DNA of 64,000 bases, from the NCBI GenBank assembly GCA_045807785.1, contig JBJMGS010000012.1:1039-65038 (forward strand). Reading direction: 5' to 3'. This document shows positions 1,089-21,638 of the stretch, in pieces. Every line of letters starts with the position of its first letter. The stretch's first letter is position 1. Both the position numbers and the translations under genes were made by a program. Source of the DNA: Pyrinomonadaceae bacterium. Its GTDB lineage: Bacteria; Acidobacteriota; Blastocatellia; Pyrinomonadales; Pyrinomonadaceae. The notes beneath the pieces were generated by a model that saw only the letters and a program-made list of their open reading frames with translations, had not been told where the DNA came from and ran no database searches.

Positions 1089-1192
1089 CCGTTAGCGGTT
1101 AGCTATTAGCTGTTAGCCAAACTGTTGTTCAGGCCGAACAAGCCAGTGCGACATACGCGAGCCGCAGGCTTCTGGCTAACCGCTAACAGCTC
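1089..1192. repeat. Intergenic heptad-palindrome element, junction 1/2
   Basis: Left arm is 4 heptads (cgTTAGC ggTTAGC taTTAGC tgTTAGC) at 1089-1120. Right arm is ggCTAAC cgCTAAC agc at 1173-1192. The arms are reverse complements separated by a ~52-nt loop. Confidence 0.8.
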
Positions 1193-1206
1193 TTGAGGAA
1201 TTGCTA

Positions 1207-3663
1207 ATGAGAACCATCTGGCAGGACATGCGCTACGGGCTGCGGGTGCTGTCGAGGCACCGTGGCTTCACGGCGGTCGCCGTGCTGACGCTCGCGCTCG
1301 GCATCGGCGCGAACACGGCGATCTTCAGCGCCGTCAACTCGGTGCTGCTGCGCGCGCTGCCTTACGCCGCGCCTGATCAACTCGTGTTGGCGTGGGAAGT
1401 GACGCCGAAGGGCAGGCAGACGACCGTCACGCCCGCGGACTTCCTCGACTGGCGCGCGCAAGCCGCTTCGTTCTCCGAGCTGGCGGCGACGAGCGGCGTC
1501 GATTTCACCGTCACGGACGAAGGCGAGCCGGCGCGCGTGCGCGGCGCGAGCGTCTCGACCAACTTCTTCCGGCTGCTCGGCACGAGCCCCGCGCTGGGGC
1601 GCACCTTCGATGGCGACGGCGCGACGGCGGGCGACTGGCACACGGTCGTCATCAGTCATAGTTTCTGGCAGAGCCGTTTCGGCGGCGACGCGGGCGTCGT
1701 CGGCAAGACGATAACGCTGAACGGCGCCGCCTATCAGATCGTCGGCGTCATGCCGCGCGAGTTCCGCTGGCAGAACCTCGCGCCGCTCTCGTCTGCGGGC
1801 GAGCTGGCGGAGTTGTTCGTCCCGGCGGTCAGGAAAGACATCCCGCAACTCGGCGCGCAGACGGATCGCGATCTCACGGCCAGCCGCAAGACGAGCTACA
1901 TGCGCGTCGTCGGGCGGATGAAGCCGAATGTGTCGCTCGCGCAGGCACAGTCGGAGATGGACGCCGTCGCGGCGCGGCTCGCCACGCAGTACCCGGAGAC
2001 GAACGCGGGCGCGGGCGTGCGGCTCATCCCGCTCAAGCGCTTCCTCGTCGGCGACTCGAGACCGGCGCTCTTGATGCTGCTCGCGGCGGTCGGGCTCGTG
2101 CTCCTGATCGCGTGCGCCAACGTCGCCAACCTCTTCCTCGCGCGCGCGACGACGCGGCGGAAGGAACTCGCCGTGCGCGCGGCCCTGGGCGCGGCGAGGG
2201 CGCGTCTCGTCCGCCAACTCCTGACCGAGAGTGTGCTGCTCTCGCTCGTGGCCGGAGGCGTCGGTCTGCTGTTCGCCGTGTGGGGCGTGCAGGGATTAGT
2301 TAGCTTATTGCCAAACGATCTGCCGCGCCTGAACGATGTTGCCATCGACGCGAACGTGCTGCTGTTCACGCTCGCCGTCTCCACCGTCACGGGGCTCGCC
2401 TTCGGGCTCGTCCCGGCGCTGCAAGTTTCGCGCGTCGATCTCACCGAGACGCTCAAGGAGGGCACGGGGAAGGCGACCGGCGCGCACGGGCGTTCGACCC
2501 GCGTGCTCATCGTCCTCGAAGTCGCCGTGTCGCTCGTGCTCCTCGTCGGCGCGGGGCTGCTCATCAAGAGCTTCGTCCTGCTCCAACAGGTCAAGCCCGG
2601 TTTCGACCCGAGCAAACTGCTCGCGCTCAACATCTCTCTGCCGCCGACGAAGTACGCCACGCCGAAAGAGAAGAGTCGCTTCTTCGAGCAGCTACTCGAA
2701 CGCATCAGAGCCGTGCCCGGCGTCAAGGATGCAGGCGCGGCGCTGAATCTTCCGTTTCCCGGCGACGACATTCTCTTTCCCCTCCGCGTCGAAGGCGAGC
2801 CCGAACCCGCACCCGGCGAAGTGAGTTCGATCAACTATCAGGTCGTCTCGCCCGACTACTTCCGCGCGATGCAGATTCCCCTGCTCGCCGGTCGCGACAT
2901 CAGCGACGCCGACCGCGCGGACGCGTCCGGAGTCGTCGTGTTGAACGAGGCGGCCGTCAAGCGTTATTTCGCGGGCGCAGACCCGCTCGGCAAGCGGATC
3001 AGATTGGGGTCGGACGACTCACCTCTGCTAACGGTCGTCGGCGTCGTGAACGACATCCGACAGCGCACGCTCGACGCGCCACCGAAGCCGGAGGCTTACG
3101 TCTCTTACCAGCAATCGCCCTTCGGCTTCATGGGCGTCGCCGTGCGCACCGAGGGCGATCCGGCGACCCTGACGGGTACGGTGCGCGGCGCGGTCGCGAA
3201 TCTGGACGCGCAAATCGTCTCGACCAACGTCCACACGATGAATGAGCTGATGTCCGAGTCGCTGGCGCGGCAGCGTTCCGTCTCGGTGCTGACCGGCGCG
3301 TTCGGCCTCGTTGCGCTCTTGCTCGCCTCGGTCGGCATCTACGGCGTCATCTCCTACATGGTGACGCAGCGGACGCGCGAGATCGGTATCCGCATCGCGC
3401 TCGGCGCGCGCGCGGGCGACGTGCTGCGCATGATCGTCGGCTACGGCATGGGGCTCACGCTGGTCGGCGTCGCGGCGGGGCTTGCCGCCTCGTTCGCGCT
3501 GACGCGGGCGATGTCGGGCCTGCTCTACGAAGTGAGTGCCTCCGATCCGCTGATCTACGTCGCGGTGGCGCTGCTGCTCTCGGCGGTCGCGCTCGTCGCG
3601 TGCCTTGTCCCGGCTCGCCGCGCGATGAGAGTCGATCCGATGGTGGCACTCCGGTACGAATGA
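1207..3663 (+). CDS. ADOP-type duplicated orphan ABC permease (MacB/FtsX-like)
   Basis: ATG at 1207 gives MRTIWQDMRYG, matching the paralog N-termini, with GAGGAA 6 nt upstream. [12 protein letters not shown]1 motif, two periplasmic domains each followed by FtsX-like TMs. Ends [10 protein letters not shown]-stop. Confidence 0.9.
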   Translation: MRTIWQDMRYGLRVLSRHRGFTAVAVLTLALGIGANTAIFSAVNSVLLRALPYAAPDQLVLAWEVTPKGRQTTVTPADFLDWRAQAASFSELAATSGVDFTVTDEGEPARVRGASVSTNFFRLLGTSPALGRTFDGDGATAGDWHTVVISHSFWQSRFGGDAGVVGKTITLNGAAYQIVGVMPREFRWQNLAPLSSAGELAELFVPAVRKDIPQLGAQTDRDLTASRKTSYMRVVGRMKPNVSLAQAQSEMDAVAARLATQYPETNAGAGVRLIPLKRFLVGDSRPALLMLLAAVGLVLLIACANVANLFLARATTRRKELAVRAALGAARARLVRQLLTESVLLSLVAGGVGLLFAVWGVQGLVSLLPNDLPRLNDVAIDANVLLFTLAVSTVTGLAFGLVPALQVSRVDLTETLKEGTGKATGAHGRSTRVLIVLEVAVSLVLLVGAGLLIKSFVLLQQVKPGFDPSKLLALNISLPPTKYATPKEKSRFFEQLLERIRAVPGVKDAGAALNLPFPGDDILFPLRVEGEPEPAPGEVSSINYQVVSPDYFRAMQIPLLAGRDISDADRADASGVVVLNEAAVKRYFAGADPLGKRIRLGSDDSPLLTVVGVVNDIRQRTLDAPPKPEAYVSYQQSPFGFMGVAVRTEGDPATLTGTVRGAVANLDAQIVSTNVHTMNELMSESLARQRSVSVLTGAFGLVALLLASVGIYGVISYMVTQRTREIGIRIALGARAGDVLRMIVGYGMGLTLVGVAAGLAASFALTRAMSGLLYEVSASDPLIYVAVALLLSAVALVACLVPARRAMRVDPMVALRYE

Positions 3664-3667
3664 GGGG

Positions 3668-3794
3668 AGCTGTTAGCTGTTAGCGATTAGCTATGAGCCG
3701 TTAGCCAATCGAGGATGGCAGCAGCGAATCGTGATTCAGGAGGGAATAGAGAGCAAAGATTTTGCTAACAGCTAACAGCTATTAGCCAATCGCT
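3668..3794. repeat. Intergenic heptad-palindrome element, junction 2/3
   Basis: agctGTTAGCtGTTAGCgaTTAGCtatgagccGTTAGCcaa at 3668-3708. GCTAACaGCTAACagctattagccaatcgct at 3764-3794. Confidence 0.85.
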
Positions 3795-3810
3795 CTTGAG
3801 GGTTTTAACC

Positions 3811-6264
3811 ATGAGCACGCTCTTACAGGATTTGAGGTTCGGCGCGCGGATGCTGATGAAGAACCCGGGCTTCGCGCTGGTGGCCGTCACAACTTTGGCG
3901 CTCGGCATCGGGGCGAACACGGCGATCTTCTCGGTCGTCCACGCGGTCTTGCTGAAGCCCCTGCCGTTTACGTCTTCGGAGCGACTGGTCGCGCTGGGGC
4001 AGACAGAGCCGCGCAACCGCACTGCCCTGTCAAACTTCTCCTTCCGCAACTTCGCAGACCTGAGAGAGCAGAACAGATCGTTCGAGCGCCTCGCCGCCTA
4101 CTACGACAAGAACGTGACGCTCACGGGCCAGGGCGAGTCCGCGCTTCTACGCTCGACCGTCATCACGTCCGATCTGTTTCCGCTGCTCGGGGCAGCGCCG
4201 GCGCTGGGTCGCGCTTTTCTCCCTGAAGAAGACAAGGCGGGGGGCGGCGGCGTGGGGCGTCCCGCCATGCTGAGCTGGGACTGCTGGCGGCAGCGCTTTG
4301 GCGGCGACACGGGCGTGGTCGGACGCGCCGTGACGCTCGACGGCGAGAGCTACACGGTCGTCGGCGTCATGCCGGCGCAGTTCGCTTTCCCCGTCGAAGC
4401 GCAGCCGACGGAAGTGTGGCTCTCGACCGCGCTCGACTCTGAAAAAACGGGCGACGGCTCGATCATGATCGCCCGCGGCTACCGTGCGTGGAGAGTGATC
4501 GGGCGACTCAAGCCCGGCGTCACATTAGAGCAGGCGCAGGCGGAAGCCGAAGTGATCGGATCGAGCCTCGCGTCGCAATACCCCGATGTGAATGAGGAGA
4601 TGGGCATCCGCGCCATGCCGCTGCTCGAATCTCTGGTCGGGAGCCTGCGCCTCATCCTGCTGCTGCTCTTCGTGACGGTCGGCGTCGTCCTTCTGATCGC
4701 GTGCGTCAACGTGGCGAACCTGCTGCTCGAACGCGCCGTCAGCCGTCAGCGCGAGATCAACATCCGCCTGGCGCTCGGCGCGAGCCGCTGGCGCATCACG
4801 CGGCAGCTCGTGACCGAGAGCTTGCTGCTCGCGCTGGCGGGCGGGGTTGCCGGGACGATACTGGCGATGTGGGGCACGGACCTGATCATCTCTCTGAGCC
4901 CACAAGGTATCGCCCGCATCACGGAGACGCGCCTCGACGCGGGCGTGCTCGCCTTCACGGCTGCGGTCTCGGTTCTGACCGGCGTGCTCTTCGGTCTCGC
5001 GCCTGCGTTCACGGTCGCGGGGACGAGTCTGTCGGAGGCACTGAAGGATGGCGGACGAAGCTCTTCGGGGGGACTGTTGTCGGGCAGCGCGCGGGGACTG
5101 CTCGTCGTCGCACAGGTCTCGATGGCGCTCGTGCTTTTGGTCGGGGCGGGGCTCTTGATTAAGAGCCTCGTGCGCCTGCAAAAAGTCGAGCTGGGGTTTG
5201 ACCCGCGAAACATCCTGACCCTGAAGGTTGCGAAAACGTCTGACCCTTCAAGAAACACGCAACAGCTCAGCGCCTTCTACCAGCAGGTTACGGAACGAGT
5301 CAGAACGCTGCCGGGCGTGGTCGCGGCAAGCGTCGTCTTCCAACCGCCCTTAAGCGGCGAGGCAGCCACCACCGGGCTGGCGGTAGAGGGGGACGCAGAA
5401 GGGTCGGGCGACCGCCTTTCCGTCGTCATCCACACGGTCGGGACGGATTACTTCCGCACGATGGGCATCCCCGTCATGAGGGGGCGCGAGTTCGGCGCGC
5501 ACGACGACCTGAACTCGACGCCCGCGATCATCATCAACGAGACGCTGGCGCGCAGGGTCTTCCCCGGCGAAGACCCGATCGGAAAACGCATCCGGCCCTC
5601 TTGGTCACCGACCGGTCAGTACGTTATGCGCGAGATCGTCGGCGTCGTGGGCGACGTGCGGCACCGCGGGTTGCAGGCGGACGTGCAGCCCGAAATCTTC
5701 TTCGCGCAGGCGCAGGTGCCCATGCCCACGATGACGGTCGTCGCTCGCACCACAGGGGACGCGCGCGCCATCGCCGACGCGGCGCGCAGGGAGATTCAGT
5801 CGCTCGACAAAGACGCCCCCGTCTATCGCGTCCTGACCGTCGAGGAACTCCTCTCGCGCTCGCTCGCCTCCTCGCGCTTCAACATGACGCTGCTCGCAGC
5901 CTTCGCGGGCGTGGCGCTGCTGCTGACGGCGGTGGGGCTCTACGGCGTGGTCTCGTTCACGGTGAGCCAGTCCACGCATGAGATCGGGATACGGATGGCA
6001 CTGGGCGCGCAGACCTCCGACGTGCTGAAGCTGGTTCTGGGGCAGGGAATGGCGCTGGCAGCTGTGGGGGTCATCGTCGGCTTGGGGGCTTCATACGGGT
6101 TGACGCGGCTGATGTCGGGTCTGCTCTTCGGCGTCGGCGCGACCGACCGCGTGACCTTCGGCGCGGTCACGGTGCTGCTCCTGGCAGTGGCAGCGCTGGC
6201 CTGCTACATCCCGGCGCGGCGCGCAACGAAGGTGGACCCGATGGAGGCGCTGAGGTACGAGTGA
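3811..6264 (+). CDS. ADOP-type duplicated orphan ABC permease
   Basis: ATG at 3811 ([11 protein letters not shown]) with GAGGG 8 nt upstream. Same architecture as the paralogs. Ends [11 protein letters not shown]-stop. Confidence 0.9.
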
Positions 6265-6268
6265 AGGG

Positions 6269-6401
6269 AGCTGTTAGCGATTAGCTGTTAGCTCTCAGCC
6301 AGACGATTGAACGCCGGTGCATGTTGAACAGCTTTACTAACAAGGGCATCAATTGATGGCTTGGCTAACAGCTAACAGCTAACAGCTAATCGCTAACAGC
6401 T
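6269..6401. repeat. Intergenic heptad-palindrome element, junction 3/4
   Basis: agctGTTAGCgaTTAGCtGTTAGCtctcagcc at 6269-6300. ggCTAACagCTAACagCTAACagCTAATcgCTAACagcta at 6363-6401. Confidence 0.85.
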
Positions 6402-6415
6402 ATCGAGGTGACGTG

Positions 6416-8842
6416 ATGGGCACACTCTTTCAAGACGTTCGTTATGGGCTGCGGGGCCTGCGCCACAACTTGGCGTTCACGCTTGTCGCGGTCTGTTCGC
6501 TGGCGCTCGGGATCGGGGCGAACACGGCGATCTTCAGTCTCGTCAACGCCGTGCTCTTGCAGCCGCCGCCGTTTCGCGATCCCTCACGCCTCGTGATGCT
6601 CTGGGAAGATCAACCCGCGATCGGCGTCACGCGGGATCAGGTGCAGCCCGCGACCTATGCCGAATGGAAGTCGCAGAATCAGGTCTTCGAAGACATGGCG
6701 GCGCTACGCTGGCAGACCTTCAACATCACCGGCGACGGCGAGCCGGAGAAGGTGCAGTCTTACGGCGTGACGAGGAACTTCCTGCCGCTGCTCGGCGCAG
6801 AGCCCGCGCTCGGTCGAAACTTTCTGCCCGAAGAAGACCAGCCCGGGGGCGCGAAAGTCGTCATCCTCAGCCACGGCTTGTGGCAGCGCCGCTACGGCAG
6901 AGATCAGAACATCGTCGGCAGAGAGATTCTCTTGAACGGCGAGAAGCGCACCGTCGTCGGCGTGATGCCCGCCGGCTTCCAGTTCTTGCAAAGCACGACG
7001 GGGCTCTGGACGCCCGCCGCCTTTACGCCCGACGAACTTGCCACACGTGACAGCAATACGCTGCTCGTCGTCGGTCGGCTTAAACCCGGCGTGACGCGGC
7101 AGCAGGCGCAGGCCGACATGGGCGCGATCACCGAACGCCTCGCGCACGACTACCCCGAAGACCTCGCGGGCATTCAAGCGAACGTCCTGCCGTTGGGCGA
7201 GCAACTGTCGGGCGCAGTCCGGCAGCCCCTGCTGATCCTGCTCGCGGCGGTCGGCTTCGTCCTCCTCATCGCGTGTGCGAACGTGGCGAACCTGCTTTTG
7301 GCGCGCGCCGCCTCGCGCCGCAAAGAGATTGCCGTGCGCGTGGCGCTCGGTGCAAGTCGTTGGCGCATCGTGCGGCAACTTTTGACCGAGAGCGTGCTGC
7401 TCTCTCTGCTCGGCGGGGCGCTCGGCCTCTTGCTCGCCGCGTGGGGCTTCGAGTTCATGAAGAAGCTCATCCCCGACGGGCTCGTGCTCTCGGCGAGCCT
7501 GCGCCTCAGCCTGCCCGTGCTCGGCTACGCAGCGCTCATCTCGCTCGCGACGGGCGTTGTCTTCGGGCTCGCCCCGGCGTGGCAGGCGTCGCGCGCTGAT
7601 CTCAACGACGCGCTCAAGCAGGGCGGCGGTCGCGGCGGCTCGGCGGCGGGCGGGCGTCTGCGCGGCGCACTCGTCGTGCTGGAAGTCGCGCTCGCACTGG
7701 TGCTGCTCGTCGGCGCGGGGCTGCTCGTGCAGACCGTCTCGCACATGCGCGGGCAGTACGCGAGTCTGAAACCGCAGCAGTTGCTGACGGTGCGCACGGT
7801 GTTGCCCGATTACAAGTACGGCTCGCTTCCCAAACGCGCGCAGTTTTACGACGAGGTGTTAGAGCGCGTGCGACAACTGCCCGGCGTCGTTGCGGTCGGC
7901 TACACGACCTCCGTGCCTCTGCAGTGGCAGGGCGGCGCGAACGGATTCATGATCGAGGGCACGCAGCTTCCGCCCGGCACGGCGGCGAACGCCATCCACC
8001 GACAAGTGAGCGCGAACTATTTGCAGACCGTCGGCCTCGCGCTGCGCGAGGGTCGCTACCTCGACGAGCACGACGGCGCACAGTCGCAGTTCGTCGTCGT
8101 CGTCAACGAGAAGATGGCGCGGCAGTACTGGCCGGGCGAGAGCGCCGTCGGCAAGCGGATCAGCTTCGGCATGGGAAAGGGGACGCCTCCGTGGCGCACC
8201 ATCGTCGGCGTCGTGGCCGACGTGCGCGACATGGGGATGGACGCGCCGGTCAAGGCGGAGATGTATCTGCCTTACAGTCAGGTGGCGGGGTTCAACGGCT
8301 TCAAGCCGCGCGATCTCGTCGTCCGCACGGAGGGCGATCCGCTGAGCCTCGCCGCCGCCGTGCGTCGCGAAGTCCACGCCGTCGATCCGGACGAGCCCGT
8401 CTCGAACGTCGCCACGATGGCGGAGCAGTTGAGCGACGAGACCGGCACGCGCGGCATCGGCATGGTCTTGCTCGCGTCGTTCGCTGGCCTTGCGCTGCTG
8501 CTCGCCACGATCGGGATTTACGGGGTGCTCGCCTATTTCGTCACGCAGCACGTGCCGGAGATCGGTGTGCGGCTCGCCCTCGGCGCGCAGCCGCGCGACA
8601 TCCTCGCGCTCGTCTTAAAGCAGGGGATGGCGCTCGCGCTCGGCGGCGTCGCGGTCGGCCTGGCGGCGTCCTTCGCGCTGACGCGGCTGATGTCCGGCTT
8701 GCTCTTCGGCGTCTCGGCGACCGACCCGAAAACTTTCGCGCTCATCTCCCTGTTCATCGCGGCGGTCGCCCTCGTCGCCTGCTACATCCCCGCGCGCCGC
8801 GCGATGAGAGTCGATCCGATGATCGCGTTGAGGTACGAGTGA
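6416..8842 (+). CDS. ADOP-type duplicated orphan ABC permease
   Basis: ATG at 6416 gives MGTLFQDVRYG (a GTG at 6413 is also possible), with GAGG upstream. Ends [11 protein letters not shown]-stop. Confidence 0.9.
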   Translation: MGTLFQDVRYGLRGLRHNLAFTLVAVCSLALGIGANTAIFSLVNAVLLQPPPFRDPSRLVMLWEDQPAIGVTRDQVQPATYAEWKSQNQVFEDMAALRWQTFNITGDGEPEKVQSYGVTRNFLPLLGAEPALGRNFLPEEDQPGGAKVVILSHGLWQRRYGRDQNIVGREILLNGEKRTVVGVMPAGFQFLQSTTGLWTPAAFTPDELATRDSNTLLVVGRLKPGVTRQQAQADMGAITERLAHDYPEDLAGIQANVLPLGEQLSGAVRQPLLILLAAVGFVLLIACANVANLLLARAASRRKEIAVRVALGASRWRIVRQLLTESVLLSLLGGALGLLLAAWGFEFMKKLIPDGLVLSASLRLSLPVLGYAALISLATGVVFGLAPAWQASRADLNDALKQGGGRGGSAAGGRLRGALVVLEVALALVLLVGAGLLVQTVSHMRGQYASLKPQQLLTVRTVLPDYKYGSLPKRAQFYDEVLERVRQLPGVVAVGYTTSVPLQWQGGANGFMIEGTQLPPGTAANAIHRQVSANYLQTVGLALREGRYLDEHDGAQSQFVVVVNEKMARQYWPGESAVGKRISFGMGKGTPPWRTIVGVVADVRDMGMDAPVKAEMYLPYSQVAGFNGFKPRDLVVRTEGDPLSLAAAVRREVHAVDPDEPVSNVATMAEQLSDETGTRGIGMVLLASFAGLALLLATIGIYGVLAYFVTQHVPEIGVRLALGAQPRDILALVLKQGMALALGGVAVGLAASFALTRLMSGLLFGVSATDPKTFALISLFIAAVALVACYIPARRAMRVDPMIALRYE

Positions 8843-8846
8843 AGGG

Positions 8847-8972: not shown

Positions 8973-8987
8973 CTTTGGGGTAAACGA

Positions 8988-11426: not shown

Positions 11427-11430
11427 AAAG

Positions 11431-11572: not shown

Positions 11573-14008
11573 ATGAACAACCTGTGGCAAGACGTTCGGT
11601 ACGGTTGGCGCTCGCTGCGCAAGAGTCCGGGGTTTACGGTCGTCGCGGTGCTGGCGCTGGCGCTCGGCATCGGGGCAAACTCGGCGATCTTCTCGGTCGT
11701 CAATGCGGTCGTGCTGCGCCCGCTGCCCTTCGATCACCCGGAGCGGCTAACGGCCGTGCTCTCGCGCAACGAGAAGGACGGCTCGGTCGGGAGCGACGAG
11801 GCTTACCCGAACTACGTCGATCTGCGCGACCAGTGTCAGACCTGCGAGGGCGTCGCGGCATACGGCTTCGTGACCATGTTCCTGACCGCCGCCGACGGCG
11901 AGCCGGAGCGCGTGCGCGGCATCGACGCCTCGGCTGAGCTGCTCCCGATGCTCGGCGTCCAGCCTGAGCTGGGGCGCTTCTACACGCGCGAAGAGGATCA
12001 GGCCGGCGCGGCGCGCGTCATCGTGCTCGCGCACGACTTCTGGCGGCGCAGCTTCGGCGGCAACCCGAAGATCATCGGCCAGCAGGTTCCGATGGGTAGC
12101 TCACCGGCGACCGTCATCGGCGTGATGCCCGCCGGCTTCAAGTTCCCGGTCGAGGCGAAGGAAGTGGACTTCTGGATGCCGCTCGCCCCGCTGCTCTCGA
12201 AGAACGATCTCACGCGCCGCGACTACGTTTCGCTCCAGTTCGTCGCCAAGATGAAGGCGGGCGCGACCATCGCGCAGACTCAGTCGGAGATCGAAACCAT
12301 CTCACGCCGGCTGCAATCTCAATACCCGGCGACGAACACGGCGCTCGTCTTCTTCGTCAGGCCGCTCCGCGACGCGCTCGTCGGCGACGTGCGCACGGCA
12401 CTCTTCGTCCTGCTCGGCGCGGTCGCCTTCGTGCTTTTGATCGCGTGCGTCAACGTGGCGAACCTCTTGCTCGCGCGCGCCTCGGCGCGGGCGAAGGAGA
12501 TTTCCGTGCGGACGGCGCTCGGCGCTTCGCGCTGGCGCATCGTCAGGCAAATGCTGACCGAGAGTTTATTGCTCTCCATCGTGGGCGGCGCGCTCGGACT
12601 CCTGTTCGCGACGTGGGGCGTGGCGCTCCTTGTCGGCGCGAGCCCGGCGGATTTGCCGCGCGCGGGCGAGATTAATTTGGACGCGCGCGTCGTGGTCTTC
12701 ACCGCCGCCGTCACACTGCTGACGGGGCTCGTCTTCGGTCTCGCGCCCGCGCTCTCGGCGTCGAAGATAGACATCTCCGACGCGCTCAAGGAGGGCGGGC
12801 GCTCTGGCTCGGACGGCGCGTCGCACAACCGCCTGCGCTCGGCACTCATCGTCGCCGAGGTGGCGCTCTCGCTGGTGCTGCTCGTCGGCGCGGGGCTCCT
12901 CGCGCAGAGCTTCCGCCACCTGCTCGACGTGAAGCCCGGCTTTGATCCGGACAACCTCGTGACGATGGACGTGGTGCCGCGCCGCAGCCGCTACCCGCAG
13001 GATGCGCAGCGCGTGCAGTTCTTCCAGGACTTCCTGCAGAAGGCGAAGGCTCTGCCCGGCGTCGAGTCGGTCGGTCTCGTCGATCCGCTCCCGCTCGGCG
13101 GCAACTTCGAGGCGTGGGACTTCCAGATCGAAGGGCGACCGCCCGCCGCACCCGGCGTCAACCAGAACGCCGACCGGCGCGTGATCGACCCGGACTACTT
13201 CCGCGCGATGAAAATTCCGGTCGTCCGCGGTCGCGCCTTCGGCGACGGCGACGCGGCGACGGCCACGCCCGTCATCATCATCAATGACTCGCTGGCGCGC
13301 AAATACTTCGCGGGCGAGGACGCCGTGGGCAAGCGGCTCGTCTTCGCGGGCGGGACCGTCTCAGGCGCGCGTGAGATCGTCGGCGTCGTCGGCGACGTGC
13401 GCCATGCGGGGCTCGAAGCCGAGACGACTCCCGAAATCTACGTGCCCTTCACGCAGGTCGCTACTTCTCGCCTGACGGTCGTCGCGCGCGCGCGCTCCGG
13501 CGATCCGGCGGGCGTCACGGCTGCCTTGCGCGGCGTCATCCGCCAGACCGACAAGGACTCGCCCATCTACAACGTCCACACGATGAACGAGCTGCTCTCG
13601 GCCTCGGTCGCGCGCCGCCGCTTCAACATGATCCTCCTCGGTAGTTTCGCCGCGCTCGCGCTGCTGCTCGCGAGCCTTGGCATCTACGGCGTCATTTCTT
13701 ACACCGTGACGCAGCGCACGCACGAGATCGGCATCCGCGTCGCGCTCGGTGCGCAAGCCTCGGACGTGCTGCGGATGGTGCTGGGGCAGGGGATGATCCT
13801 GACCTTCGTCGGGGTCGGGGTCGGCCTCGTCGGCGCGTTCGCGCTGACGCGCGTCATGTCGAGTCTGCTCTTCGGCGTCTCGGCGACCGATCCGCTCACC
13901 TTCGCCGTCGTCGCGCTGTTGCTCCCCGCCGTCGCGCTCGTCTCGTGTCTTATCCCCGCGCGGCGCGCGACGCGCGTCGATCCGATGGTGGCGCTCAGGT
14001 ACGAATGA
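11573..14008 (+). CDS. ADOP-type duplicated orphan ABC permease
   Basis: MNNLWQDVRYG start with GAGGTG upstream. Ends [11 protein letters not shown]-stop. Confidence 0.9.
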   Translation: MNNLWQDVRYGWRSLRKSPGFTVVAVLALALGIGANSAIFSVVNAVVLRPLPFDHPERLTAVLSRNEKDGSVGSDEAYPNYVDLRDQCQTCEGVAAYGFVTMFLTAADGEPERVRGIDASAELLPMLGVQPELGRFYTREEDQAGAARVIVLAHDFWRRSFGGNPKIIGQQVPMGSSPATVIGVMPAGFKFPVEAKEVDFWMPLAPLLSKNDLTRRDYVSLQFVAKMKAGATIAQTQSEIETISRRLQSQYPATNTALVFFVRPLRDALVGDVRTALFVLLGAVAFVLLIACVNVANLLLARASARAKEISVRTALGASRWRIVRQMLTESLLLSIVGGALGLLFATWGVALLVGASPADLPRAGEINLDARVVVFTAAVTLLTGLVFGLAPALSASKIDISDALKEGGRSGSDGASHNRLRSALIVAEVALSLVLLVGAGLLAQSFRHLLDVKPGFDPDNLVTMDVVPRRSRYPQDAQRVQFFQDFLQKAKALPGVESVGLVDPLPLGGNFEAWDFQIEGRPPAAPGVNQNADRRVIDPDYFRAMKIPVVRGRAFGDGDAATATPVIIINDSLARKYFAGEDAVGKRLVFAGGTVSGAREIVGVVGDVRHAGLEAETTPEIYVPFTQVATSRLTVVARARSGDPAGVTAALRGVIRQTDKDSPIYNVHTMNELLSASVARRRFNMILLGSFAALALLLASLGIYGVISYTVTQRTHEIGIRVALGAQASDVLRMVLGQGMILTFVGVGVGLVGAFALTRVMSSLLFGVSATDPLTFAVVALLLPAVALVSCLIPARRATRVDPMVALRYE

Positions 14009-14012
14009 GGGA

Positions 14013-14169
14013 GGCGGTTAGTTGTGAGCGATTAGCGATTAGCTTTTAGCTGTTAGCCCTGAGCTATGAGTTGCAAGCGACTAACGCTCGGCCTTCGCAC
14101 CGGCCTTGTTAACGACCGTGTTTTCAGTTTGGCTCACAGCTAATGGCTAACAGCTAACAACTAAAAGCT
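14013..14169. repeat. Intergenic heptad-palindrome element, junction 6/7 (longest copy)
   Basis: ggcgGTTAGttgtgagcgaTTAGCgaTTAGCttTTAGCtGTTAGCcctgagctatgag at 14013-14070. ggctcacagCTAATggCTAACagCTAACaaCTAAAagct at 14131-14169. Confidence 0.8.
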
Positions 14170-14181
14170 CTCGAGGTAGCG

Positions 14182-16572
14182 ATGGACACACTCTGGCAAG
14201 ACCTGCGTTACGGCGTGCGGATGATGTTGAAGCGCCCCGGCTTTGCGGCGGCGGCGGTGTTGACGCTCGCGCTCGGCATCGGCGCGACGACGGCGATCTT
14301 CTCCGTCGTCAACGCGGTGCTGCTGCGCCCGCTGCCTTTCAGCGAGCCGGAGCGCCTGTTGACGCTCAGGCGGAACGAGTCGGTGCCCGACCTCGAAGAC
14401 ATTAAAGCGCAGAGCCAGTCGTTCGAGTCGCTCGGCAGCTCCAACCAACGTCCGCTCGACTACACGGGCGAGGCGGAGCCGTTGCAGGTGCAGGCCAGTC
14501 TCTGTAACGCCGATCTCTTCCGCGCGCTTGGCGTCCCGGCGGAGATCGGGCGCACGATCACGCCCGCCGAAGACGGGTACGGCGCAGAGCGCGTCGTGGT
14601 CTTGAGTCACAACTTCTGGGAGCGCCATTTCGGCGGCGACCGCGGTGTCATCGGGCGCGCGATTCCGCTCAGCGGAAACTCCTACACCGTCATCGGCGTG
14701 ATGCCGCCGCAGTTCAACGCGCTCGGCGCAGACACGGACGTGTGGGCGGCGCTGCGCGTGGTCGATCCGCTCGCGGCGCAGTTTCGCGGCGTGCATTTCC
14801 TGCGCACCTACCTGCGTTTGAAACCCGGTGCGACGATGCAGCAGGCACAGGCCGAGCTGGCGTCAATTGACCAGCGTCTGGAGCAGCAGTACCCGGAGGA
14901 GAACAAGGGGCGGCACAGGCAGCTCCTCTCGCTGCACGAGTACGTCGTCGGCGACACGCGCCCGGCGCTGCTCATCCTCTTCGGCGCGGTCGCTCTGGTG
15001 CTGCTCGTCGCGGCGGCAAACTTCTCGAATCTGCTGCTGGCGCGCGCGGCGTCGCGCAAATCCGAGCTGGCTGTGCGCGCGGCCCTCGGCGCGGGTCGCG
15101 CGCGACTCGCAAGACAGTTGGTGACCGAGAGTGTATTGCTGGCCGCCGTCGGCGGGGTGGGTGGTCTCATCCTCGCGTCGTGGGGCATTGATCTTTTGAC
15201 CGCACTCAAGCCTGAGAGTCTGCCGCTCGCGGCGTCGGTTGGGATTGACCGCTGGGTACTGGCGTTCACCTTCGGCGTCGCGCTCTTGACGGGCGTCGTC
15301 TTCGGACTCGTGCCCGCACTCGGCGCGTCCCGCTTCGACGTGACGGCGGCACTCAAAGAAGGCGGTCGCGGCGCGCAGGGCGGCGTACGGCAGCGCGCGC
15401 GAAGTCTCCTGGTCGTCTCGGAGCTGGCGCTCGCGCTGATGCTGCTCGTCGGCGCGGGACTCTTGATCAAGGGCTTCTGGCGGCTGCGCTCGGTCGAGCC
15501 TGGTGTCGATCCGTCGAACCTGCTGACCATGCGACTTGAGTTGCCAGAGGCGCGCTACAAAGAGATTCCGAAGCAGACAGAGTTCCGCCGCCAACTCGTC
15601 GAGCGGCTGAACGCGCTGCCCGGCGTCGAGGCGGCAATGGTCAGCGAGCTGCCCTTGAGCGGCGACATGCTGACGCACAACGTCGCCATCGAAGGGCGAC
15701 CCGTCGCGATCGGCGACGAACCGGAGTTGCAGACGATCAATGTCGCCGGCGACTACTTCCACACGATGCGCATCCCCTTGCTTCGCGGTCGCGGCTTGAC
15801 GTCGCAGGATCGCGCGGGCGCGCCCGTGGTCGGCGTCGTCACCGAAAGTTTCGTCCGCGAATACTTCCCGAACTCCGACCCCATCGGCGCGCGCATCCGC
15901 TGGGTGCGACAGCAGCCGCCGCAGTGGATGACCATCGTCGGCGTCGTCGCAGACGTCAAACACTCCGGTCTGGATCAACCCGAAGCGCCCGCGTTCTACT
16001 ACTCCTACATGCAGGCCGATCAAACCTGGAAGCGTTGGATGTACCTCACCGTCCGCGGCCAGGCCAATCCAGCGGCGCTCGCGCAGCAGGTGAAGGAGCA
16101 GGTCTGGGCGCTCGACAAGCAACTGCCTGTGACGAAGGTTAAACCGATGACTGAAGTGATCGCGGCATCGGTCGCCGCGCGCCGCTTCACGATGACGCTG
16201 ATGGGCATCTTCGCTGTCGCCGCGCTCCTGCTCGCGAGCCTTGGCATCTACGGCGTCATCTCTTACACCGTGACGCAGCGCACGCACGAGATCGGCGTGC
16301 GCGTGGCGCTCGGCGCGCGCACGGCTGACGTGCTCCGGCTCGTCATGGGGCAGGGGCTCTGGCTCACTGCGGTCGGCGTGGCGCTGGGGCTCGCCGGGGC
16401 GTTCGCCGCCACGCGGCTGATGAAGGGCTTGCTCTTCGGCGTCGGGGCGACCGACGCCTCGACTTTCATCGTCATCCCGGCGCTGCTCGCGGCGGTCGCG
16501 CTCGCCGCCTGTCTCGTGCCGGCGCGGCGCGCGGCGCGGGTCGATCCGATGATCGCGCTCAGAGACGAGTGA
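14182..16572 (+). CDS. ADOP-type duplicated orphan ABC permease
   Basis: [11 protein letters not shown] start. Same architecture as the paralogs. The tail is a variant, [11 protein letters not shown]-stop. Confidence 0.9.
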
Positions 16573-16624
16573 TTAAAGAAGAGACGAGTGATTAAAAATT
16601 AACCTGCGAAGCAGGAGGGGGTTG

Positions 16625-19051
16625 ATGGCTATGGGGACGTTCTGGCAAGACATCAAGTACGGCGTGCGCGTGTTGTTGAAGACGCCACTGTTCACCGCCG
16701 TAGCAGTGCTCGTCATCGCGCTCGGCATCGGGGCGAACACGGCGATCTTCTCGGTCGTCAACGCGGTGCTGCTCAGGCCGCTGCACTTCGAGTCGCCCGA
16801 ACAACTCGTCCGCGTCTTCGGGACGTCGCCGCGGCGCAACAACTTCTCGCGCCCCTACTCGTACCTGAACTTCTCAGACCTGCGCACACAGAACGGGACG
16901 CTCGAAGCGCTCGGCGCTTATACGGGGACGAGCGCGGCTCTGAGCGGGACGGACGCGCCGGAGCAGATCACGGGCGTGCTGGCGTCGGGCGACATCTTCC
17001 GCGTGCTGAAGACGAAGCCGCTGCTCGGGCGCTTGCTCGCGCCGGAGGACGAGAAGCCGGGCGGCACACCCGTCGCCGTCATCAGCCACGGGCTGTGGCA
17101 GCGCCGCTTCGGCTCCGATCCGAACATCGTCGGCCACCAGATCAAACTCGACGGCAAAGAGCGCGAGATCATCGGCGTCACGCCCGCCGACTTCCGCTTC
17201 GAGTTTCTCACGGACGCCGCAGACTTCTGGACGCCCATCGACCCGCAGGGCGACGGGTTCCAGTCGCGCGGTGCGATCTTCCTCGAAGTGATCGGAAGGC
17301 TCAAGCCTGGCGTCACACTCGGGCAGGCGCAGGCCGACATGGAAGGCGTGATGGGGCGTTTGCAGCAGGAGTATCCGAATCCGAACACAGGCATCGGCAT
17401 CCGTCTGGCGGGCGCGCAGGAGGAGCTGGTCGGCGACCTGCGCCCGACACTGCTCGTGCTGCTCGGCGCGGTCGGCTTCGTGTTGCTCATCGCGTGCGCC
17501 AACGTGGCGAACCTGCTCTTAGCGCGCGCCGCCGGGCGTGGGCGCGAGATCGCCGTGCGGGTGGCGCTCGGCGCGTCGCGCGCGCGCATCGTCCGGCAGC
17601 TTTTGACCGAGAGCACGCTGCTCGCCTGCGTCGGCGGTCTGCTCGGCCTGCTCTTCGCCGTCTGGGGCGTCGATCTGCTCAACTCGTTCATCCCGCCGGA
17701 CGTGCCGCGCTTCGGCGAGACGAGTCTCGATCTGCCGGTGCTTGCCTTCACGCTCGGCGCGTCGCTCTTGACGGGCGTGCTCTTCGGGCTCGCGCCCGCC
17801 GTCCACAGCGCGCGCATCGACATGAACGAGTCGCTCAAGGAGGGCGGTCGTGGCGCGACCGAGGGGCGCGCGCGCAACCGCGTACACAGCCTGCTCGTCG
17901 TGGCCGAGGTCGCGCTCTCGCTCGTGCTCCTGGTCGGCGCGGGCTTGCTCGTCAAGAGCTTCATCAAACTGCGCAACACCGATCCGGGTTTTGATCCGCG
18001 CGGCACGGTGACCGCTTCGCTCTCGCTCGCACCCGTACGCTACACGAAGGACGAACAGATCACGCAGTTCTACGATCAACTGATCGAGCGCATCAAGTCG
18101 CTCCCCGGCGTGGAGGCGGTCGGCGCCGTCTCGCCGCTCCCCTTGAGCGGCAACGGGATGTCCTACTCCTTCGTTATCACGGATCGACCGGAGCCGCCGC
18201 CCGGCCAGGGCTTATCGGCCTCGGCGCGCTTCACGACGCCCGGCTACTTCCGCGCGATGGGCATCCCCCTGCTCCGGGGGAGAATTTTCACCGAGCAGGA
18301 CAGGGCGGACGCGCCCGCCGTGCTCGTCGTCAACGAAGCGTTCGCGCGCCGCTACTTTTCCGGCGAGGAAGTGCTCGGCAAGCGGTTGCGTCTGGGGTTC
18401 AACCGGATCGAGGGCGAGGTCGTGGGCGTGGTCGGCGACGTGCGGGGCAGCAACCTGAGCGAGCCGGGCACGCCGGAGTATTACATCCCGCAGTCGCACG
18501 CCGCGTCGGGCGATATGTCGCTGGTCGTGCGCACGAGCACGTCTGATCCGGCGGCGCTCACGCCCGCGCTGCGACAGGTGGTGCGCGAGATGGACAAGGA
18601 TCAGCCGCTCTACGAAGTGCGGACGATGAACGCGCTCGTCTCAAGATCGGTGGCGCGGCAGCGCTTCAGCACGACCCTGATCGGGGTCTTCGCGGCGCTG
18701 GCGCTCGCGCTCGCGGCGGTCGGCATCTTCAGCGTGATGAGCTTCCTCGTCGCGCAGCGCACGCACGAGATCGGCATCCGCATGGCTCTCGGTGCGCAAA
18801 CTTCTGACATCCTGCGGATGATCCTCGGTCGCGGCATGACACTGACGCTCGTCGGCGTCGGGCTCGGACTCGCCGCCGCCTTCGGCCTGACGCGACTGAT
18901 GAGGAGTCTGCTCTTCGGCGTCTCGGCGACCGACCCTATCACGTTCGGGGGCGTCGCAGTCCTGCTCGCGTCGGTCGCGCTCCTTGCCTGCTACGTGCCG
19001 GCACGGCGCGCGACGAAGGTCGATCCGATGATCGCGTTGCGCTACGAGTGA
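16625..19051 (+). CDS. ADOP-type duplicated orphan ABC permease
   Basis: GGAGG at 16614-16618. ATG at 16625 (MAMGTFWQD) has the best spacing; ATG at 16631 (MGTFWQD) matches the paralog N-termini. Ends [11 protein letters not shown]-stop. Confidence 0.88.
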
Positions 19052-19092
19052 AGTCCGTCGGCAATCAAGGCGCGACTCGCGCGGAGGGACAC

Positions 19093-21513
19093 ATGAGCAC
19101 ACTGTGGCACGATCTCAAGTACAGCGCTCGCCTGTTGTTGAAGAGCCCCGGCTTCACCTTCGTCGCCGTGCTCTCGCTCGCGCTGGGCGTGGGCGCGAAC
19201 ACGGCGATCTTCTCGCTGGTCAACACGGCGCTCTTGCGCCCGCTGCCGTTCAGTGAACCCGACCAGCTGATGTTTCTGGCGGAGCAGAGTCGGGCGGGCG
19301 ACCGGGGTAATCTGGCCTACCCGAATTTCAAAGACTGGCAGGAGCGCGCGAAGTCTTTCGCGGGCATGGCCGTTTACCGCGGCGGCTCGTTCAGTCTCAC
19401 GGGTGGCGACTACGCGGTGCGTCTGCAGGGCCGGACGGTGAGCGGCAACTTCTTCGAGCTGCTCGGCGTGCAGCCCGAACTCGGTCGCGCCTTCACGGCG
19501 GAAGACGACAAGCTCGGGGCGGCGAAGACCGCGCTCATCAGCCACGGGCTGTGGCTGGAGCGTTTCGGCGGCGACACGACGGTCGTCGGACGCGAGATCA
19601 AGCTTGACTCCGAGACGGTCACGGTCGTCGGCGTGCTGCCGCAGTGGTTGGAGTTCCTGCGCCGCGACGACATCTACGTCCCCATCGGCCCCACCCTCAC
19701 GGAGCAGTCGGGCTACCTCGAACGCGGAAACCACTTCGGGCTCTACGGCGTGGCGCGCCTGAAGCCGGGGGTCGCGCCCGCGCAGGCGCGCGCCGAGATC
19801 GAAGGGCTGGCCGCGCAGCTCGAACGCGAGTACCCGGAGACGAACAGCGGCGTCGGCGCGCAGGTTATGCCGCTCGCGGAGCGCTGGGTTGAGAACCTCA
19901 AGCCGGCGCTGCTCGTGCTGCTCGCCGCCGTCGCGTTCGTCCTGCTCATCGCGTGCGTCAACGTGGCGAACCTGGCTCTGGCGCGCGGGGCGGAGCGACA
20001 GCGCGAGATCGCCGTGCGCGTCGCGCTCGGCGCGGCGCGCTGGCGCATCGTGCGCCAACTCTTGAGCGAAAGCATGCTGCTCGCGCTGCTCGGCGGCGGC
20101 GCGGGGCTGCTCCTCGGCTCGTGGCTGCTCGACGGCCTCCTCGCGCTGGCACCCGCCGACGCGATCCAGCTCACACACGTCAGCCTCGATGGCCGCGTGC
20201 TCTGGTTCACGCTCGGCGTCTCGCTCGTGACGGGCCTGCTCTTCGGGCTCGTGCCCGCGCTCAACGCCTCGCACCCCGATCTCAATGCGGCGCTCAAAGA
20301 GGGCGGTCGCTCGCTGGCCGACTCTTCGCGAGAGGGGCTGCGCCGCGCGCTGCTCGTCGCCGAGGTCGGCCTCGCGCTGGTGCTGCTCGTCGGCGCCGGC
20401 CTGATGCTGAGGACGGTCCGCCAACTGACGCGCGTCGATGTCGGCTTCGACGCCGACCACCTGCTGACGGCACGTTTCAACCTGCCCGCCGACACTTACA
20501 AAGAGAACCCGCGCCGCCTCGCCTTCTACGACGAGTGCCTGACGCGCGTTTCGGCGCTGCCTGGCGTGAGCGGCGCGGCGCTCACCTTCTCGCTCCCGAT
20601 TGACGGGTCGAACTGGAACTCCGTCTTCGTCGCCGCCGATCTGCCCGTGCCTGCGCGCGCAGACATTCCGTCGTCGGCCTTCACTCCCGTCAGCGGCAAC
20701 TACTTTTCGACGATGAACATTCCCGTGCTGCGCGGTCGCGCCTTCAACTCGACCGACACGGCGGACGGGCAGCGCGTCGTCGTGATCAACGAGACGATGG
20801 CGCGGCGGCTCTGGCCCGGTCAGGACGCCGTGGGCAAGCGCATCAAGCAGGGGTGGCCGGAGGCTAAGACGCCCTGGCGCGAAGTGATCGGCGTCGTCGC
20901 GGACGTGAAGCTCAACGGCGTCGAGAGGGAGACGCCGTTGCAGTCCTACCTGCCGCTCACGCAGGAGCCCGCGCGCTCCCTCGTCCTCGTCGCACGCACG
21001 AAGGGCGACCCGCGCCCGCTCGGCGCGAGCGTCGAACAGGCCATGCACTCGATTGAGAAAGACCTGCCTGTCTTTGCCGTGCGCTCGATGGACGAAATTC
21101 TGAACAGCGCCATCGCGCAGCAGCGGCTCTTGATGACGCTGCTCGCGGGCTTCTCCGTCGTTGCGCTGCTGCTCGCGGCGGTCGGCATCTACGGCGTCAT
21201 CTCCTGGTCGGTCAACCGGCGCACGCACGAGATCGGCATCCGCATGGCGCTCGGCGCGCAAACCTCGGACGTGCTGCGGCTCGTCATCGGGCAAGGGATG
21301 CGACTGGCGCTCGCGGGCGTCGTCGTGGGGCTCGTGTCGGCGTTCGGCGTGACGCGGCTGATGAAGGGCCTGCTCTTCGGCGTCTCCGCGTCCGACCCGG
21401 CGACATTCGTAGGGATCGCGGTGCTGCTCGCGCTCGTCTCGTTCGCCGCCTGCTACCTGCCGGCGCGGCGTGCCACACAGGTCGATCCGATGATCGCGCT
21501 CAGGCACGAATGA
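19093..21513 (+). CDS. ADOP-type duplicated orphan ABC permease
   Basis: ATG at 19093 (MSTLWHDLKYS) preceded by GGAGGG. The ORF-track start at 19048 would overlap the previous gene. Ends [11 protein letters not shown]-stop. Confidence 0.9.
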   Translation: MSTLWHDLKYSARLLLKSPGFTFVAVLSLALGVGANTAIFSLVNTALLRPLPFSEPDQLMFLAEQSRAGDRGNLAYPNFKDWQERAKSFAGMAVYRGGSFSLTGGDYAVRLQGRTVSGNFFELLGVQPELGRAFTAEDDKLGAAKTALISHGLWLERFGGDTTVVGREIKLDSETVTVVGVLPQWLEFLRRDDIYVPIGPTLTEQSGYLERGNHFGLYGVARLKPGVAPAQARAEIEGLAAQLEREYPETNSGVGAQVMPLAERWVENLKPALLVLLAAVAFVLLIACVNVANLALARGAERQREIAVRVALGAARWRIVRQLLSESMLLALLGGGAGLLLGSWLLDGLLALAPADAIQLTHVSLDGRVLWFTLGVSLVTGLLFGLVPALNASHPDLNAALKEGGRSLADSSREGLRRALLVAEVGLALVLLVGAGLMLRTVRQLTRVDVGFDADHLLTARFNLPADTYKENPRRLAFYDECLTRVSALPGVSGAALTFSLPIDGSNWNSVFVAADLPVPARADIPSSAFTPVSGNYFSTMNIPVLRGRAFNSTDTADGQRVVVINETMARRLWPGQDAVGKRIKQGWPEAKTPWREVIGVVADVKLNGVERETPLQSYLPLTQEPARSLVLVARTKGDPRPLGASVEQAMHSIEKDLPVFAVRSMDEILNSAIAQQRLLMTLLAGFSVVALLLAAVGIYGVISWSVNRRTHEIGIRMALGAQTSDVLRLVIGQGMRLALAGVVVGLVSAFGVTRLMKGLLFGVSASDPATFVGIAVLLALVSFAACYLPARRATQVDPMIALRHE

Positions 21514-21518
21514 GGAGA

Positions 21519-21638
21519 GCGGTTAGCGATTAGCGATTAGCCGTTAGCAGGAAGCTACCAGCTCTCAGCATTCGCGCCGGCTCCGAGACGGATGGTGTTT
21601 TCGGCTTGGCTAATAGCCAATAGCTAATAGCCAACTGC
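21519..21638. repeat. Intergenic heptad-palindrome element, junction 9/10
   Basis: gcgGTTAGCgaTTAGCgaTTAGCcGTTAGC at 21519-21548. ggCTAATagCCAATagCTAATagCCAActgc at 21608-21638. Confidence 0.8.

Follow-up and report, generated by a model that had tools for sequence, protein, structure and literature searches.

Seven of the nine junctions in a tandem array of ADOP permease genes hold a hairpin-forming element built from two opposed arrays of 7-nt repeats. The array lies on a 64-kb stretch of a Pyrinomonadaceae genome that was assembled from a metagenome (contig JBJMGS010000012.1; the whole 64-kb stretch is referred to here as the window). The elements are very probably convergent heptanucleotide-repeat pairs of the type described from Xanthomonas, situated here in an acidobacterial permease operon. 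Judged from the sequences of related operons, the architecture, position, and 7-nt period of the elements are conserved, and their sequence is not. The elements are part of a widespread class of intergenic period-7 arrays that is indifferent to sequence, and their association with junctions between ADOP genes is a real, roughly 10-fold enrichment that is not exclusive.

Opposed heptad arrays at the permease junctions

The plus strand of the window encodes ten tandem ADOP permeases (TIGR03434) between positions 45 and 24070, the first gene being truncated at the window edge. The ADOP type is a duplicated FtsX/MacB-type permease; the eight full-length genes that were scanned score 975 to 1059 bits against TIGR03434, and the paralogs are 42 to 52% identical to one another in protein sequence. 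At seven of the nine ADOP-ADOP junctions, the space from a gene's stop codon to the Shine-Dalgarno sequence of the following gene is occupied by an array of the form (NNTTAGC)n, a spacer of 57 to 64 nt, and the reverse-complementary array (GCTAANN)n (Table 1), and no other intergenic region of the window carries such a hairpin. The motif TTAGCNNTTAGC, searched with at most one mismatch, has 47 matches versus 1.2 expected, all of them intergenic and located in the seven junctions; no match occurs from 24 to 64 kb. Tandem Repeats Finder (TRF) reports a period of 7 with 2.6 to 5.9 copies at all 14 arms.

The junction RNAs have predicted minimum free energies (MFE) of −46 to −65 kcal/mol and stems of 35 to 57 predicted pairs, with z scores of −2.4 to −7.2 at six junctions; the fold of the seventh element-bearing junction (21514-21658) is weak, at z = −0.8. 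Each element can pair in three to five registers, spaced exactly 7 nt apart and each 70 to 95% paired. The first-pass annotation of this DNA had proposed opposed heptad arrays that form a hairpin at seven of nine junctions and pair in several registers, and the motif matches, TRF, and RNA folding bear out both points. Its description of the flanks holds in part. The purine-rich "GGGAG box" that it placed 3 to 6 nt after the stop codon is present and starts 0 to 1 nt after it, and it is not a separate box: the outermost heptad of the array is degenerate (xxxxAGC), lies in phase with the other units, and forms pairs with the GCTNTNG that immediately precedes the GAGG ribosome-binding site. In most junctions, 0 to 9 nt rather than 8 to 20 nt separate the end of the 3′ arm from the ribosome-binding site, and at junction 3 the stem directly adjoins the ribosome-binding site GAGGTGA. 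The array edges decay gradually at both ends.

No U-tract follows any of the seven stems, whose 3′ flanks read GCTCTTGAGG or GCTATCGAGG, and a scan of positions 1 to 20000 found neither terminator-like nor sigma-70-like promoter sites in the junctions. An Rfam cmscan of positions 1 to 26000 (E ≤ 1) gave no match in a junction; its only hit was a sub-threshold CRISPR-DR29 at 24169-24205, outside the junctions.

Table 1. Junctions of the ADOP gene array (window positions; MFE in kcal/mol)
Junction	Position	Outer heptad	5′ arm	Spacer or loop	3′ arm	MFE	z	Remark
1	1087-1191		NNTTAGC ×4, 1090-1117	57 nt	GCTAANN ×2, 1175-1188, + GCTC	−46.4	−3.35
2	3664-3795	GGGGAGC, 3664-3670	3671-3705 (5 units, one TGAGC)		3764-3784, then GCTCTTG directly 5′ of AGGG	−47.1	−2.36
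3	6265-6405	AGGGAGC, 6265-6271	6272-6299		5-6 units, 6364-6403	−65.1	−7.18
4	8843-8972	AGGGAGC	8850-8877	loop motif GCGAAAACAGAGC	8938-8972	−50.3	−3.79
5	11427-11556	AAAGAGC	11434-11461		11522-11556	−57.6	−5.01
6	14009-14169	GGGAGGC	14016-14071 (8 units, several degenerate)	loop GTGTTTTC	14131-14169	−63.7
7	16573-16621							No heptad element; comparator "empty" junction
8	19048-19051							No element; tightly coupled, 4-nt overlap (GTGA) of ADOP genes 16622-19051 and 19048-21513
9	21514-21640	GGAGAGC	21521-21548, decayed units to 21562		GCTAAT/GCCAAT units, 21607-21640	−48.9	−0.80	Most degenerate element

The arms in the window are near-perfect although the ADOP paralogs around them are only 42 to 52% identical. 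The spacers are mostly unrelated, with the exception of one pair: the junction 5 element is almost identical to that of junction 4, including the loop. This similarity belongs to a tract of approximately 400 nt (8763-9160 on the plus strand versus ~11347-11745) that is 80 to 92% identical, compared with ~55% in the flanking coding DNA. It begins ~80 nt before the end of the upstream gene, takes in the complete element, and reaches ~170 nt into the downstream gene. Because the copy extends into flanking coding sequence, the tract is a product of gene conversion between junctions rather than of transposition. The two arms of an element have no register-specific complementarity at their NN positions beyond that of unit-order shuffles; they are therefore independent arrays of one heptad family and not mirror copies.

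The loops also recur. The junction 6 loop is the junction 4/5 loop motif in flipped orientation, and a GAAAAC/GTTTTC loop motif is shared by hairpins of different heptad types; within the window, junctions 4 and 5 have it in forward orientation and junctions 6 and 9 in reverse. In the related array L121, the loop reads GTGAAGACCGGAAGAAC at one of two neighboring junctions (9918-10001 and 12442-12528) and GTTCTTCCGGTCTTCAC, the exact reverse complement, at the other; two hairpins that are similar in other respects thus differ by a flip of the loop. At junction 7, which has no element, a 19-nt tandem duplication (AGAGACGAGTGATTAAAGA / AGAGACGAGTGATTAAAAA; 16563-16621) includes the stop codon of gene 14182-16572; a small hairpin (CCTGCGAAGCAGG) comes next, and then the ribosome-binding site AGGGGG.

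Orthologous junctions and the wider class of heptad arrays

A protein match of 100% assigns the window to a Pyrinomonadaceae metagenome-assembled genome, and a look-up for proteins identical to the window's ADOP gene product returned no record. Seven arrays from relatives, each with an ortholog of the window gene at 8988-11426, were compared (loci L121 to L127; protein identity of the ortholog in parentheses). L121 (90%) is syntenic with the window, with flanking genes 84 to 90% identical in protein, and carries opposed arrays of GAGRTCA/TGAYCTC at seven of eight junctions, the eighth being a plain hairpin. The heptad is GAGGTYA in L124 (90%), with one GACTGAG junction; GAGGTCA in L125 (84%), with GTGACAR at the junction of HlyD-like and ABC-ATPase genes; GAACGAT in L122 (83%); and CAGTTGN in L123 (75%). 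In L126 (81%), GTGACRG and GAGGTCA are interleaved within one array. The junctions of L127 (72%) are tight, with stop codon, Shine-Dalgarno sequence, and start codon within 10 to 27 nt, and have no hairpin. When one orthologous junction was aligned, the coding flanks were well conserved and the cassette between TGA and GAGGTGA..ATG was wholly replaced; array copy number also differs between orthologs. The adaptor-to-ATPase junction, which does not join paralogs, holds a heptad hairpin in both L123 and L125. From the hairpin-free tight junctions of L127 and from window junctions 7 and 8, we infer that the element is dispensable and is not an essential regulator.

Across 36 junctions, the median stem has 31 predicted pairs; it begins 3 nt downstream of the stop codon (interquartile range, 0 to 5) and stops 12.5 nt short of the next start codon, leaving ∼15.5 unpaired nucleotides, which is the length of the tight junctions in L127. 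Thus, the hairpin is a fold-out insertion between stop codon and Shine-Dalgarno sequence.

Period-7 arrays were counted in two sets of loci. In the Pyrinomonadaceae set, they are present in 28 of 40 long ADOP-ADOP junctions versus 1 of the 35 remaining spacers (p = 4e-10). A second set, of 80 independent ADOP loci from metagenomes at 38 to 54% identity to the query, has them in 11/37 long ADOP-ADOP junctions versus 8/266 spacers between two other genes (Fisher p = 8e-7), and 8 of 100 spacers between an ADOP gene and another gene carry one. Five or six of the nine distant-ADOP junctions that were examined have the same order of stop codon, hairpin, and ribosome-binding site, yet with other heptads, and a junction of the distant array L133 is predicted to fold at −63.5 kcal/mol versus −28.5 kcal/mol for shuffled sequences. 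The period itself stands out in loci picked only for ADOP content, which hold 42 period-7 arrays versus 12 of period 6 and 9 of period 8. The link to ADOP genes that had been suggested at first persists as a statistical enrichment at ADOP-ADOP junctions, not as a restriction to ADOP genes.

When one genome of each species was searched for three units of TTAGCNN, at least 120 loci were recovered. Those listed span Acidobacteriota, Cyanobacteria, Bacteroidota, Firmicutes, Chloroflexota, Planctomycetota, Desulfobacterota, Gemmatimonadota, Proteobacteria, and Saccharibacteria, and in none of the 120 does an ADOP gene lie beside the array, which is the behavior that the first-pass annotation had associated with a generic dispersed element. 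Of approximately 150 elements in these listed loci, 1 is intragenic; nearly all of the arrays are intergenic, tight against the flanking genes, and found in every gene orientation, one heptad hairpin lying between convergent genes (L056). The opposed-pair architecture occurs in ∼25 of the listed loci, and among the matches listed 25 TTAGCNN pairs are convergent, with the TTAGC arm first, versus 4 that are divergent. Single arrays predominate in these other loci, and the arrays at ADOP junctions are nearly all paired. The same 120 loci also contain 115 period-7 arrays of other heptads, several of them opposed pairs, versus 6 to 21 arrays for each of periods 5, 6, 8, and 9.

The TTAGC core is not special within this class. 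In viral contigs, four-unit arrays of TTAGC account for at least 120 stretches and arrays of the permuted cores TTACG, TAGTC, and ATCGT for 97, 117, and 82, respectively, which are about as frequent; by period, the viral contigs hold at least 120 stretches each for periods 6 and 7 and 77 for period 8. Some viral contigs (L276, L234, L284, and L281) carry five to eight separate TTAGCNN arrays each, several of them opposed pairs, and long arrays are also found in giant-virus contigs. No significant common motif was detected among 121 distinct heptad types. T-N-A-G as a common motif did not reach significance (z = 2.4, with 192 patterns tested), and a purpose as three-frame stop codons was rejected because heptads that contain stop codons are not enriched (z ≤ 2.1).

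The arrays obey a polarity rule. Of 32 heptad types that occur as opposed pairs, 28 have more G than C in the 5′ arm and 2 have more C than G (p = 9e-7). When all period-7 arrays of bacterial loci L001 to L207 and of the window are considered, the G-rich strand, read 5′ to 3′, leads away from the closer gene in 188 cases versus 65 (107:33 at stop codons and 81:32 at start codons), and the rule holds between convergent and divergent genes too. No explanation that was tested accounts for it. Avoidance of false Shine-Dalgarno sequences was rejected as a cause because the polarity is also present beside stop codons and between convergent genes, and unpaired arrays, which served as a test of Rho avoidance, have only a weak sense-strand bias (74:54, p = 0.09).

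The gene neighborhood connects the permeases to a larger operon. In relatives, a gene for a HlyD/YknX-like adaptor and one or two genes for ABC ATPases lie upstream of the ADOP arrays (L123 5385-7529; L125 561-2783; L127 4560-7382), and the "orphan" permeases therefore belong to a MacAB-like operon. Directly 3′ of the window array, a 311-amino-acid (aa) open reading frame (ORF) with no Pfam or NCBIfam match is followed by a sigma-54-dependent response regulator and then a histidine kinase (24101-28005). L122 resembles the window in having a 326-aa ORF, a regulator, and a kinase (15036-18897); L125 has the regulator and kinase after the array without the small ORF (18063-20412), and a 304-aa ORF with no Pfam hit lies within the L123 array.

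Elsewhere in the window, the minus strand at 38719-41760 encodes a solo 897-aa MacB_PCD/FtsX permease without a heptad element. The small ORF that precedes it looks PadR-like by eye from its translation, which would make a classic pair of PadR and ADOP genes. A perfect 15-bp hairpin (GAAAGGGAGGCACGA / TCGTGCCTCCCTTTC) at 47407-47442, downstream of a sigma-70 (rpoD-like) gene, is probably a bidirectional terminator; it has the purine-first polarity of the heptad elements, but no heptad repeats. The remainder of the window is ordinary chromosome, with rpoD-like, glgB-like, and ABC-2 transporter genes among others, and neither a transposase nor an integrase was found among 30 scanned ORFs.

Origin and possible role of the hairpins

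The reading that we prefer, to which we would give an even chance, is a composite one: repeat arrays that arose through slippage are retained as intercistronic hairpins that fold out of the transcript. Taken separately, any statement on the origin of the element or on a role at the RNA level is tentative and somewhat less secure than that. The differences in copy number and the decayed edges suggest that arrays grow and shrink by replication slippage in 7-nt steps. The conversion tract suggests, in addition, that whole junction cassettes may be homogenized between adjacent ADOP junctions through gene conversion on the conserved gene ends, and loops would be able to flip between junctions. The operon would be transcribed through the elements, each of which would fold out of the mRNA as a long hairpin and leave ∼15 unpaired nucleotides, so that the geometry of a tight, translationally coupled junction would be preserved. 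An insertion that is structurally silent for coupling in this manner would for that reason be tolerated in operon junctions.

RNase III needs a stem of ∼20 bp. The window elements, with their 35 to 57 predicted pairs, would offer at least ∼20 bp of near-continuous double-stranded RNA in a transcribed spacer, and RNase III processing or mRNA stabilization is structurally plausible on the basis of the modeled folds. By analogy with REP, ERIC, or Correia-type palindromes, the long double-stranded stem would probably act as a barrier to 3′ exonucleases, as an RNase III substrate, or as both. Selection on the sense-strand RNA was assessed by comparing G-U pairs with A-C oppositions. In 37 junction elements, the sense and antisense folds were compared and are equally stable (mean, −46.8 versus −47.0 kcal/mol; G-U pairs, 123 versus 115; Wilcoxon p = 0.67), and no asymmetry was found, in a test whose power is low, as the stems tolerate mismatches. 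Strand-symmetric pairing is consistent with an origin at the DNA level.

Several observations weigh against this composite reading. Slippage does not explain the polarity rule, with the 5′ arm richer in G in 28 of the 30 skewed pair types, nor why arrays point inward at both gene starts and gene stops, and it cannot alone account for so sharp a preference for 7 nt. That the 5-nt core is kept and the two NN positions vary suggests some constraint on sequence within a genome. Gene conversion between paralogs cannot explain the hairpins at the non-paralogous junctions of HlyD-like and ABC-ATPase genes in L123 and L125. The enrichment at ADOP junctions, which is at least 10-fold, could mean selection and not tolerance, and the strand-symmetry comparison is a weak guide here, as stems of about −47 kcal/mol absorb single mismatches. 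Finally, every RNA-level step is inferred from modeled structures.

The main rival explanation, which we regard as rather unlikely, is that the hairpins form a selected RNA module needed for RNase III processing of the transcript into units protected by a 3′ stem, for strict translational coupling, or for both, and that their sequence drifts freely provided that a long stem remains adjacent to both the stop codon and the Shine-Dalgarno sequence. It would account for orthologs that keep architecture and position despite complete replacement of the heptad, and for stems that exceed the ∼20 bp needed by RNase III (median of 31 predicted pairs), start 0 to 5 nt after the stop codon, and in many junctions are abutted by the Shine-Dalgarno sequence. 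The strong ADOP-ADOP enrichment, the independent recurrence of the design in distant ADOP arrays, and the almost uniform pairing of arrays at ADOP junctions, with single arrays predominant elsewhere, also favor it. Against it, hairpins are missing from the array with the 72% ortholog (L127) and from two window junctions, and the antisense strand folds as well as the sense strand, in which G-U pairs do not exceed A-C oppositions. The same elements also lie between genes in convergent or divergent orientation and occur in viral contigs, and the need for a stem made of 7-nt repeats is left unexplained.

A more general form of selection, for a sequence-agnostic operon module across bacterial phyla, is slightly less likely still. 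Such a module would be a fold-out spacer that keeps stop codon and Shine-Dalgarno sequence together, segments or stabilizes long mRNAs, and is rapidly rewritten by a directional process in 7-nt steps. It would have a universal polarity, with the G-rich arm transcribed first and the C-rich arm second, possibly because a C-rich stretch would then never be exposed to Rho.

It is improbable that the elements are MITE-like inserts (miniature inverted-repeat transposable elements), in which a non-autonomous palindrome would use its heptad arms as multi-site terminal repeats for a transposase supplied in trans and would insert between stop and start codons. Mobility of this kind would fit the several copies per genome, the "empty" tight junctions of relatives, the loop present in both orientations at neighboring junctions (L121, 9918 versus 12442), the two copies with a conserved spacer that lie 3.4 kb apart in L059, and the occurrence of TTAGCNN arrays in many phyla and in viral contigs. 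Yet inspection of the flanks by eye revealed no target-site duplication, termini are not defined and the edges decay gradually, and arm length changes in 7-nt steps. The one clear copy event, between junctions 4 and 5, runs into coding flanks and points to gene conversion, no transposase was found among the 30 scanned window ORFs, and arbitrary control heptads are equally abundant. The gradual edges, the absence of a target-site duplication by eye, and spacers that are unrelated save for junctions 4 and 5 likewise led us to reject membership in the Correia/ERIC-like MITEs. The MITE-like insert put forward in the first-pass annotation has weak evidence in its favor, with no target-site duplication visible by eye and no conserved body.

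Even less likely are terminators or attenuators, possibly bidirectional or lacking a U-tract, that would make each ADOP gene a separately controlled unit. Very stable hairpins directly after stop codons, a purine-rich 5′ flank with a pyrimidine-rich 3′ flank that recalls the polarity of bidirectional terminators, and the example between convergent genes in L056 agree with termination; the seven stems without a U-tract, the junction scan without terminator-like or promoter-like sites, and the ∼12 nt from stem to next start, which leave no room for a promoter, do not. A classical terminator, also proposed originally, lacks both its U-tract and a promoter-like site downstream.

Least likely of all are protein-binding arrays, whether DNA operators or targets of a ring-forming RNA-binding protein like HutP or TRAP; a factor bound to the 5′ arm would compete with folding of the hairpin. 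In the window, a 5-nt core is conserved with two variable positions, the 5′ arm reads UAG-N4-UAG-N4-UAG, a UAG period of 7 that matches what we take to be the geometry of HutP sites, and the fixed arm order (TTAGC first in 25 pairs versus 4) suits a factor that binds the first-transcribed arm. The HutP-type geometry is lacking in the orthologous GAGGTYA and GAACGAT cassettes, and no terminator follows. Because orthologous junctions contain unrelated heptads (GAGGTYA, GAACGAT, GTGACRG, or CAGTTGN) between flanking genes that are 84 to 90% identical, a sequence-specific operator is ruled out, and with it the multi-site operator of the first-pass annotation. Two heptad types interleaved in one operon (L126), 121 heptad types without a common motif, and the absence of a candidate binding protein among the scanned window ORFs argue in the same direction. 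Telomerase-like addition to a 3′ end at a break was rejected as a poor fit to arrays that abut genes and enclose a unique spacer.

Relation to known repeat systems

It has been known since 2007 that, of the long simple repeats in bacterial genomes, those with heptanucleotide units are the most over-represented. The locus described here and its relatives constitute an unusually clean natural experiment, with one conserved operon and up to eight junctions per genome, in which the same fold-out hairpin is rebuilt in each genome from a different heptad and the tight, hairpin-free junctions of a distant relative act as controls. The locus separates what is constrained (the period of 7, arm polarity, position between stop codon and Shine-Dalgarno sequence, and arm complementarity) from what is not (the sequence). 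For annotation, heptad arrays should not be read as operators, CRISPR-like repeats, attC sites, or MITEs. If the reading as a selected module is true, the bacterial excess of heptanucleotides would gain a functional and mechanistic explanation.

REP/BIME, ERIC, and Correia (NEMIS) elements are co-transcribed imperfect palindromes of 35 to 150 nt at operon junctions that stabilize upstream mRNA or are cut by RNase III. These families have a conserved sequence, defined termini, and no 7-nt periodicity, and REP has a cognate RAYT transposase. The window elements lack these features of membership, and the likeness is an analogy of how they may work. REP/BIME was rejected specifically: there is no GTAG or CGTC head, the arms are repeat arrays of variable length, and no Y1 transposase was found among the scanned window ORFs. 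Intrinsic terminators were likewise rejected as a class for want of a U-tract directly after the stem.

Integron attC sites are likewise imperfect palindromes, of 60 to 140 nt, directly after each of a series of same-orientation ORFs, with structure kept and sequence variable; GTTAGCN also resembles the attC core site GTTRRRY. Unlike in attC, the core order is inverted (GTTAGC...GCTAAC here versus RYYYAAC...GTTRRRY) and the arms are repeat arrays. Given this inverted order, the lack of an integrase among the scanned ORFs of the window, and a gene order syntenic with L121, an attC identity was rejected.

Among known simple repeats, heptanucleotide repeats are the most abundant long ones in most prokaryotic genomes (Mrazek 2007, as related in PMC4679880), and examples include the cyanobacterial STRR (Mazel 1990 and Mrazek 2007, as related in the same paper) and the TAACTGA repeats (MacGregor 2015). 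An origin by replication slippage has been put forward for such repeats, and a single genome can hold several heptad types. Like STRR and TAACTGA arrays, the arrays studied here have a period of 7 and at least three units, are strongly intergenic and phylogenetically scattered, and often lie near start or stop codons. STRR and TAACTGA repeats have mainly been described as direct arrays, with one indirect set among 170 in the genome of Orange Guaymas "Maribeggiatoa" (BOGUAY), whereas the arrays here are almost always opposed, hairpin-forming pairs. A literature search for the heptad strings themselves returned nothing relevant.

A matching design was reported from Xanthomonas by Rehm et al. (2015; PMC4692102), so the design is not, as had first been supposed, without a described precedent. 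Xanthomonas genomes carry heptads of the form GGGAATC/(GGGANTN)n, with two variable positions and mostly ∼4 units per array, and each genome has 70 to 75 cases of two convergent arrays on opposite strands with the potential to form a stem-loop (PMC4692102). Those arrays lie between genes at a mean distance of 28 nt from the ORF upstream, differ in length and sequence among close species, and have no known function (PMC4692102). The heptad-palindrome design is thus already described and still unexplained. All seven window elements share with the Xanthomonas pairs the convergent arrangement of same-heptad arrays on opposite strands, close together. They differ in that the TTAGCNN units have no run of three or more G residues, and hence no G-quadruplex potential, in their acidobacterial host, and in being concentrated in one operon of tandem paralogs instead of dispersed. 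The present locus and its relatives add two findings to the Xanthomonas report: one heptad type is exchanged for another at orthologous junctions, and the polarity rule is general.

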